NCBI RefSeq assembly: GCF_016026235.1 | Contig: NZ_CP065613.1 | Length of the DNA: 64,000 nucleotides | Source: Escherichia coli | GTDB lineage: Bacteria > Pseudomonadota > Gammaproteobacteria > Enterobacterales > Enterobacteriaceae | Strand: one strand, 5' to 3' | In this document: positions 12,540 through 13,282 of the stretch, piece by piece | Layout: each line of letters begins with the position of its first letter | Numbering within the stretch: position 1 is the stretch's first letter | The notes under the pieces: model-generated | Seen by the model: only the letters and a program-made list of their open reading frames with translations | Database searches by the model: none | What the model was told of the DNA's origin: nothing | Translations under genes and position numbers: made by a program

Positions 12540-13103
12540 GTGGAAATTAAAAAAATCATTAATCCCCGTTATACCGAAAGTGGCGCAGTAGACTGTGACG
12601 TTTTTTTTGACGACAGGGACCAGGCAGTCCCCTACACAGCCACCGCTGATGATGTCGCTCCGACGGGTCAGCAAATCTGGCAGGAACTGCAAAGCGGCAA
12701 ATGGGGTGAGATAGCCCCATTCACTGTGACACCAGAAATGCTGGAAGCGGCCAGAGAGGCCAGACGTCAGGAAATTGAAGCATGGCGCACAGAACAGGAG
12801 GCGAAGCCGTTCACGTTTGAATGGAACGGTCGTATCTGGAATGCTGGCCCCGACTCACTGGGCCGCCTGTCCCCGGTAGTCATGCTGGCAAAATCTGTCA
12901 CAGCACAAACACATATGGCGTGGAGCGATGCTGATAATCAGCAGGTGAAACTGTCGATGCCGGAACTGGAAGAACTGGCGGCAGCAATGGTGCAGGCGCA
13001 GGTCGATCGCAACGATGAGATTTATCGCCGTCAGCGGGAGATGAAAGAGGAGCTGAATAACCTGGAGGATTTACATTCAATTCGGGCGTTTGACGTTGAG
13101 TAA
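12540..13103 (+). CDS. tfa: Tail fibre assembly protein (Tfa)
   Basis: Position immediately after stf; putative GTG start 12540 preceded by GAGGA; tail-fibre-assembly-like sequence; start uncertain. Confidence 0.7.
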
Positions 13104-13219
13104 TGAATAAGCCGCAACTGGCGGAATCACAGAAGACCGCTTTGCTTACCGAAGCGGAGTCTGTCATCCGGCCGCCGGGGCGTGCTGTCAGGCTGAACAG
13201 GGAAACGGATGAATCCGGG

Positions 13220-13246
13220 GAGGCCCGGGGGCGGGCCTCTGTTTTT
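13220..13246 (+). terminator. Rho-independent terminator downstream of tfa
   Basis: GAGGCCCG-GGGG-CGGGCCTC followed by TGTTTTT. Confidence 0.55.
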
Positions 13247-13282
13247 CCGGAGTCAGTCCGGTCTGTGGTTTATGCGATGTGA

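Follow-up and report, generated by a model that had tools for sequence, protein, structure and literature searches.

This analysis of a 64,000-nucleotide stretch of Escherichia coli DNA (contig NZ_CP065613.1 of assembly GCF_016026235.1, hereafter the window) indicated that a 59-codon open reading frame (ORF), lying between a phage tail-fibre-locus gene and the convergent type III effector gene ipaH, is probably a pseudo-ORF, in other words a recombination scar of tail-fibre module shuffling, and a gene remnant rather than a new gene. The frame is indeed chimeric: its codons 1-4 come from the 3' untranslated region of the preceding gene, which carries a DUF4376 domain, codons 5-37 are a relic of a tail-fibre-assembly (tfa) gene, and codons 38-59 consist of a predicted terminator plus the 3' flank of ipaH. 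Since 33 of the 59 codons are stop-free by descent from a former coding sequence, and since the rest is G+C-rich and easily open by chance, the length of the frame is unremarkable.

The frame occupies positions 13103 to 13282 of the plus strand, with its ATG at 13103-13105 and its TGA at 13280-13282. The original prediction, made from the letters alone, had described an ATG overlapping the upstream stop and opening a 59-codon frame up to 13282, and both the ORF listing and our reading of the sequence bear this out: the TAA of the upstream ORF (13101-13103) and the ATG have one base in common, within the letters TAATG (13101-13105). It had also placed the stop of ipaH, on the other strand, next to the end of the frame, and the reverse-strand TAA of ipaH (13283-13285) was found to begin at 13283, directly after the TGA of the ORF. 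The terminator hairpin that it had seen inside the frame was recovered by scanning and by folding (13219-13240, T-run 13242-13246). The name tfa, which it had given to the upstream gene, had to be abandoned: this gene encodes a DUF4376 protein (Pfam, 6.5e-17), not a Tfa of the Caudo_TAP type, and the homology to the tail-fibre-assembly genes U of Mu and G of P2 lies in the 59-codon ORF itself, not in the gene upstream. The ORF and its parts are the following.

13103..13282, plus strand: the 59-codon ORF, a chimera of untranslated tail, microhomology, relic, terminator and ipaH 3' flank
13104..13114, plus strand: 3' untranslated tail of the DUF4376 module (TGAATAAGCCG), ORF codons 1-4, seen in ipaH-free relatives
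13114..13124, plus strand: junction microhomology GCAACTGGCGG, 10-11 bp, common to both parents, from comparison with both parent types
13115..13212, plus strand: in-frame internal relic of a tfa gene of the Mu U / P2 G / P1 U type (codons 113-145 of 175), from blastn, BLASTP and Pfam
13172..13183, plus strand: hypervariable patch, codons 24-27 (CCG CCG GGG CGT), from allele comparison
13219..13247, plus strand: predicted intrinsic terminator, stem GGAGGCCCG / CGGGCCTCT, loop GGGG, then GTTTTTC, from terminator scan and folding
13232..13282, no strand assigned: ipaH 3' flank, forming the last ORF codons, shared with the plasmid genes ipaH7.8 (from 13232) and ipaH9.8 (from 13242 or 13269)

The chaperone relic and the recombination junction

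The relic was recognisable in both DNA and protein. Between 13110/13115 and 13212, nucleotide identity was 78-81% to the tfa genes of Mu (U), SfMu, P2 (G), P1 and P7, and the same 78-81% was found against the tfa genes of more than 1200 E. coli genomes (blastn). Residues 5-37 of the ORF aligned with residues 113-145 of Mu U in BLASTP, with 25 of 33 positions identical (76%, E 2e-13), and the match begins on a codon boundary in the ORF and in tfa alike, in the same codon phase. On the Pfam profile Caudo_TAP (PF02413), where the same residues 5-37 fall on profile positions 66-98 of 131, the ORF scored 17.5 bits (E 0.0048), below the gathering cut-off of 22.1 bits; the 33-residue core taken alone reached 18.2 bits, against 25.9-34.2 bits for the equivalent stretch of four intact genes. 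The ORF lacks the two-domain architecture of the family (about 175-200 amino acids), of which the stretch equivalent to Mu U residues 113-145 alone is represented; the relic has neither the domain that binds the fibre, at the N terminus, nor the last 30 or so residues. Judged by sequence, the relic qualifies as a descendant of a Caudo_TAP family member. What is left corresponds to no more than the first helix region of the C-terminal domain, a conserved domain described as mediating trimerisation in TfaMu (PMC9608196). Any tfa homology past 13212, such as CCGGAGTCA against CTGGAGTCA in Mu, concerns stretches too short to test and is speculation only. The Caudo_TAP gene found upstream in the myovirus-type prophage described below was considered as a source of the relic and rejected, as the two bear no similarity to each other.

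Marks of decay were found in the relic. The stretch PLERAVRLNMATDE does not vary among the five intact genes compared; in the relic it is altered, and the copies vary further at these codons. The ratio of non-synonymous to synonymous substitution rates (dN/dS) between the relic and the intact genes was 0.15-0.26. Among the intact genes themselves, it was 0.05-0.09 in the pairs that diverge most (Mu-type and P2-type, of similar dS) and 0.20-0.42 in closer pairs. In codons 24-27, otherwise near-identical copies differ by five substituted positions and a one-nucleotide deletion (13175) within 11 nt, giving the alleles P24Q, P24stop, P25R, P25Q, R27C and R27H. Gene conversion from an intact tfa, considered as the origin of the polymorphism, was unsupported, the variants at 13138, 13153, 13156 and 13201 being unlike Mu, SfMu, P2 and two E. 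coli tfa genes.

The junction between the two parents could be located precisely. The 3' untranslated region (UTR) of the DUF4376 gene reads GCAACTGGCG in E. coli PSS-15 and TUM1881, and intact tfa genes of the P2 G type (AVS0096) naturally contain GCAACTGGCGGAAT; GCAACTGGCGG, which the two parents thus have in common as a microhomology, gives the site of the recombination. The start codon of the ORF has a similarly ordinary origin. The DUF4376 frame closes with tandem stops TAA-TGA (13101-13106), of which the letters TAATG, and hence the ATG, are a by-product. E. coli SE11 and an IMG/VR prophage (L075), neither of them with ipaH, likewise have TAATGAATAAGCCGC behind the DUF4376 stop; there it runs into a short hairpin with seven T (the gene's own terminator), and the ATG opens five codons only. 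Since the same ATG is present in these ipaH-free prophages, it is not specific to the ORF. Other DUF4376 alleles end in TAA-TAG or in a single TAA and have no ATG.

From the anatomy, homologies, junction and distribution reported here we infer an order of events, an activity for the terminator and a fate for any translation. The ancestral cassette would have consisted of a tfa gene of the Mu U / P2 G type, then the terminator, then the convergent ipaH. A different fibre pair (stf plus DUF4376) would later have recombined in at the 10-11 bp microhomology, removing the first 112 tfa codons, and a second rearrangement would have taken the last 30 or so, so that about 98 bp remain. A one-in-three accident would have put the ATG that straddles the DUF4376 tandem stops into the phase of the relic, and with this phase the frame is open through the relic and the hairpin, up to the ipaH stop. 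In this best-supported reading, nothing in the interval from the DUF4376 stop to that of ipaH would be at work except the predicted intrinsic terminator, which would end transcription of the tail-fibre operon and guard the convergent ipaH from antisense transcription. Reinitiation at TAATG, should it occur, would proceed without a Shine-Dalgarno sequence, and terminated transcripts would end near 13246, about 34 nt short of the stop at 13280, and would thus be missing the ORF stop codon. Ribosomes that reach a stop-less RNA end are handled by trans-translation, in which transfer-messenger RNA (tmRNA) tags the peptide for degradation. As the RNA would end before the ORF stop, any peptide would need tmRNA rescue and would then be degraded.

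The neighbouring genes, and a repeat that links the upstream one to the relic, are the following.

12480..13103, plus strand: DUF4376 tail-fibre-locus gene (Pfam DUF4376, 6.5e-17; PHROG 1141 'tail fiber protein', 2e-89)
12973..12981 and 13116..13124, plus strand: 9-bp direct repeat AACTGGCGG, copies 143 bp apart, from reading the sequence
13283..15046, minus strand: ipaH, type III-secreted E3 ubiquitin ligase of 587 amino acids (Pfam NEL, 1e-76; LRR_TTSS, 1.7e-19)

Homologues of the upstream gene are named 'DUF4376 domain-containing protein' in RefSeq. Its longest ORF, from the ATG at 12480, overlaps the end of stf (11075-12529) by 50 nt; the true start is likely the GTG at 12540, as suggested by the SE11 homologue and by a GAGGAA-N6-GTG motif at 12529-12542. 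A deletion between the two copies of AACTGGCGG fuses DUF4376 in frame to the relic, with the junction ...PELEELAESQKT..., and this very junction is that of the 181-residue 'hypothetical bacteriophage protein' P0016 of S. flexneri 2457T.

Predicted terminator, ipaH flank and distribution of the block

The predicted terminator has the G+C-rich stem-loop followed by a U-tract (GUUUUUCC) that is expected of intrinsic terminators. According to the terminator scan, its stem (13219-13240) comprises 9 bp, seven of them G-C pairs, and is followed by the tail GTTTTTCCGG with the T-run at 13242-13246. The hairpin alone folds at -19.2 kcal/mol, and the variants keep it, at -15.5 to -21.7 kcal/mol. Over 12300-13600, the scan returned five terminator-like sites against 1.0 expected. 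The terminator would serve the rightward direction, that of the tail-fibre operon, inside the ORF and convergent with ipaH, and the ORF stop lies 34 nt past the T-run. Its arms AGGCCCG / CGGGCCT and four-nucleotide loop match the hairpin that follows U in Mu (L003, 1398-1417) and SfMu (AGGCCCG-N4-CGGGCCT), which hints that relic and terminator may come from one source with an internal deletion. When viral contigs were scanned for the hairpin followed by GTTTTTCCGG, 38 matches were obtained: the relic was present in 37 of the 37 with readable upstream sequence, the remaining one was cut by the contig end, and none had an intact tfa.

In the 3' flank of ipaH7.8, between this gene and ipaH4.5 on the virulence plasmid pINV (L012, 1480-1560), we observed a weak hairpin (GGTCCG-TAAT-CGGGTC, -4.9 kcal/mol) with the same ACAGTTTTTCCGGAGTCA; hairpin and ACAGTTTTTCCGGAGTCA stand on the strand antisense to ipaH, and there is no convergent gene at that place. 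This degenerate hairpin, with its T-run the same, looks like a relic of the chromosomal-type terminator and agrees with a terminator of long standing in the ipaH flank. In S. sonnei (L004-L009), an IS3-family element abuts GAATCCGGGG at 13210/13211, exactly where tfa homology stops; at these loci the terminator and the flank alone are left beside an intact ipaH of 571 amino acids, and integrase and excisionase genes, not tail-fibre genes, lie upstream.

RefSeq names the homologues of ipaH IpaH3/Hc, IpaHa and IpaHd. The exact 587-residue IpaH was recorded once only (L080), there beside an alpha-2-macroglobulin gene, and in the window ipaH is neighboured by ORFs of 362 (15507-16595) and 916 amino acids (16797-19547), which, to judge by their translations, may be yacH and acnB. 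The same ipaH paralogue thus seems to occupy different chromosomal sites in different strains.

The 59-residue protein is widespread. Its exact sequence was found on at least 944 contigs and two further 59-residue alleles on 959 and 589 contigs, the carriers being S. flexneri, S. sonnei, S. boydii and enteroinvasive E. coli (EIEC). Database names include 'hypothetical protein', 'tail fiber assembly protein' and 'phage tail assembly protein', and NCBI RefSeq (PGAP) leaves the ORF unannotated; the ORF is already in the databases, partly under its correct name. The function-unknown phage family PHROG 7784 matches it end to end (E 1.7e-44, residues 1-59 on profile positions 1-59 of 59), but this family is merely the ORF as called in prophage annotations, so that membership is uninformative on function. 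We found no report covering the ORF in the literature on ribosome profiling, proteomics and small proteins of Shigella.

Conservation followed ipaH. One genome carries four identical copies, each beside a different ipaH paralogue, and the hosts of the block are both lambdoid (J-lom-stf) and myovirus-type (baseplate J, Gp34-like fibre, Caudo_TAP) prophages. Among E. coli genomes at large, the relic was never found apart from ipaH, and the whole interval occurred in only 9 of 5426 genomes. Variable sites numbered 6 in the 180 bp of the interval, 10 in 418 bp of the adjoining ipaH constant region and 66 in 561 bp of DUF4376; being as invariant as the ipaH constant region, the block hitch-hikes with it. 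Phage-borne type III effectors mostly sit after tail-fibre genes near the prophage end (PMC3530523), and the genomes of S. flexneri are known to carry ipaH islands I-V (PMC4226921); hitch-hiking with ipaH fits both. Conservation in related prophages, which the original prediction had proposed as a check on the frame, gave a divided answer. Homologous DUF4376 ends that lack ipaH do not contain the frame, and the ends that bear ipaH all have it in nearly identical form, so that its conservation there is uninformative.

In the myovirus-type prophage, the stf-DUF4376-relic-terminator-ipaH block was seen behind a complete second fibre set (a Gp34-like fibre and a 181-residue Caudo_TAP protein). This arrangement was observed at L026 and L029 (one Shigella/EIEC genome), L001 (EIEC CFSAN029787) and L014 (a '25-kb plasmid' of S. 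flexneri 1a). L001 shows a further deletion, at a repeated GGCGCAG motif, which joins the start of stf to the last 117 bp of DUF4376.

Frame integrity and alternative readings

The original prediction had left two possibilities side by side, translation coupled to the upstream gene and a non-coding frame in view of the terminator within it; the evidence favours the second. Frame integrity was evaluated on 43 copies from IMG/VR, sampled by flanking patterns: 35 were intact, seven carried an indel and one a nonsense codon, and the indels mostly fell either within the hypervariable patch or within a run of five G (13226-13230) at the loop of the hairpin. Per base, the ORF was disrupted about six times as often as ipaH and at least 1.5 times as often as DUF4376 at the same loci, and one S. 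flexneri contig has an insertion sequence (IS) near 13266. Selection was evaluated on about 60 copies, sampled without regard to the protein sequence of the ORF; extra sampling through ipaH protein look-ups brought no new variable sites.

Several observations nevertheless count against a mere scar. Eight of 14 substitution events were synonymous, where 27-30% were expected (binomial P 0.015-0.03, omega about 0.3), and the six non-synonymous events were all confined to codons 24-27 and the hairpin arm. The frame was intact in 35 of the 43 copies, and the exact protein and the other alleles recur on at least 944, 959 and 589 contigs, respectively. Most of the frame-breaking indels stand in the G5 homopolymer and could be sequencing errors. 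Moreover, a stop/start overlap can allow reinitiation without a Shine-Dalgarno sequence. Given the nominal excess of synonymous changes, low-level translation under weak constraint may occur.

On these grounds, the ORF could be read as a small protein, translated by reinitiation at TAATG and held under weak purifying selection, a reading that we regard as unlikely. It would account for the start/stop overlap, for a frame that is intact in most copies and identical at up to four loci of one genome, for the nominal synonymous excess (8 of 14 events, P about 0.02) and for a PHROG family of its own. The relic moreover spans the first helix region of a C-terminal domain used for trimerisation in TfaMu (PMC9608196), so that the product might conceivably act as a lone Tfa C-terminal helix, modulating or interfering with fibre assembly of its own phage or of co-resident Mu- or P2-like phages. 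The same data nonetheless contain much that such a protein would not explain. The ORF has no usable Shine-Dalgarno sequence (GAG alone stands upstream, 2 nt from the ATG), the predicted terminator precedes its stop codon, family-invariant residues are lost and four high-frequency amino-acid replacements are concentrated in codons 24-27, while frameshifted, nonsense and IS-disrupted alleles exist alongside intact ipaH. As the copies are at least 97% identical, their conservation mostly equals recent spread with ipaH. The statistical support is also softer than it appears, since the polymorphic sites are carried by few, linked haplotypes and the event-based P is consequently overstated; counted by sites, 7 of 13 changes are at third positions (P = 0.10). 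A -1 frameshift joining DUF4376 to the ORF, considered as another route to translation, was rejected, the frame of the ORF having stops at 13091 and 13097, just upstream.

The interval could instead matter as RNA, the ORF then being incidental. On the minus strand it would be the 3'UTR of ipaH, with hairpins that shield the end of the mRNA or bring ipaH transcription to a stop; on the plus strand, a 3' piece of the tail-fibre transcript, ended by the terminator, could serve as a small RNA. The region 13095-13300 indeed folds better than its shuffles on both strands (z = -2.8 for plus; z = -3.5 for minus, with 0 of 200 shuffles as good), is conserved like the constant part of ipaH, and has its flank part, with hairpin and T-run, kept by the plasmid gene ipaH7.8. 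Yet the fold signal comes mostly from the terminator hairpin, and the relic by itself falls short of significance (z -1.2 and -1.7). Read on the strand of ipaH, the strong hairpin is not followed by a U-tract. A newly evolved structure within the relic was also considered, its fold reaching -39 kcal/mol against -29 to -31 kcal/mol for intact tfa, and was rejected on the same z values and on the similar hairpin formed by the intact P2 G sequence. In addition, the Rfam search gave no match at E up to 1 in 12000-16000, the scan of 12300-13600 returned no promoter for a separate transcript, and ipaH9.8 has just 14-40 nt of flank in common. We hold an RNA role to be quite improbable.

The geometry of the locus invites a further proposal, in which a ribosome closely trailing RNA polymerase would cover the 5' half of the terminator stem, so that transcription could read through into ipaH in antisense. 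Such an anti-termination switch, which we find hardly credible, would tie phage late-gene expression to ipaH silencing. What speaks for it is the geometry alone, with a coupled start, a hairpin 116 nt into the frame and a stop 34 nt past the T-run, in principle like that of leader-peptide attenuators; neither an alternative anti-terminator pairing nor a regulatory codon run is evident, though, and the ATG and the frame came from an accidental fusion. The alleles with a frameshift in the hairpin loop are neutral in this respect, since the reading frame ahead of the loop is the same in them. The nominal synonymous excess, together with the fact that the block is fixed next to each chromosomal copy of ipaH, does leave some room for a relic kept for use, whether as a decoy helix directed against the trimerisation of rival Mu- or P2-like phages (SfMu) or through translation that tunes antisense read-through of ipaH, although we judge this very improbable. 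A recombination scar with a working terminator is the reading that we prefer.

Read as a scar, the locus bears on annotation, as the 59-residue frame is called in thousands of Shigella/EIEC assemblies, where it would best be labelled as a fragment of a tfa gene followed by a terminator. It is at the same time a record of the assembly and movement of the ipaH cassette, in which chaperone remnant, terminator and ipaH move together and which is found in two unrelated prophage backbones, and it offers an example of tail-fibre module shuffling that carries a virulence effector. A greater importance would follow only if the hint of purifying selection were true.

Relation to known systems

The ORF can be compared with the Caudo_TAP chaperones (Mu gpU, P2 gpG, P1/P7 U and lambda Tfa), to which its residues 5-37 are homologous, in phase with Mu U 113-145. 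Unlike these chaperones, it keeps 33 of about 175 residues and follows a DUF4376 gene, not its cognate fibre gene. It more closely recalls the E. coli pseudogenes named 'tail fiber assembly protein, incomplete' in RefSeq (e.g., SE11, L002 214-309), being like them a stranded, in-frame chaperone fragment; the relic and such partial tfa/stf genes both lie in the most mosaic part of phage genomes, with the partner fibre gene absent. The cryptic prophages of K-12 also hold tfa fragments. Unlike other partial tfa genes, however, the relic has gained an ATG and a frame open to the next gene, so that some pipelines call a protein, and it has been fixed in an ipaH cassette and copied to several loci.

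With regard to its setting, the locus resembles the effector ('moron') loci at the ends of lambdoid prophages and the ipaH islands of Shigella, where ipaH comes after tail-fibre genes. It differs from the usual account of morons in that the scar between effector and fibre genes is here the point of interest, and in that the block is also found in a myovirus-type prophage. Finally, the hairpin is like the intrinsic terminators between convergent genes, such as that between the convergent genes U and U' in the G segments of Mu and SfMu, with a G+C-rich stem of 8-9 bp and a four-nucleotide loop. The Mu hairpin differs in having no T-run on that strand, and the terminator of the present locus lies inside an open frame; common descent of the two hairpins is suggested by their arms, although G+C-rich arms can also recur by chance.

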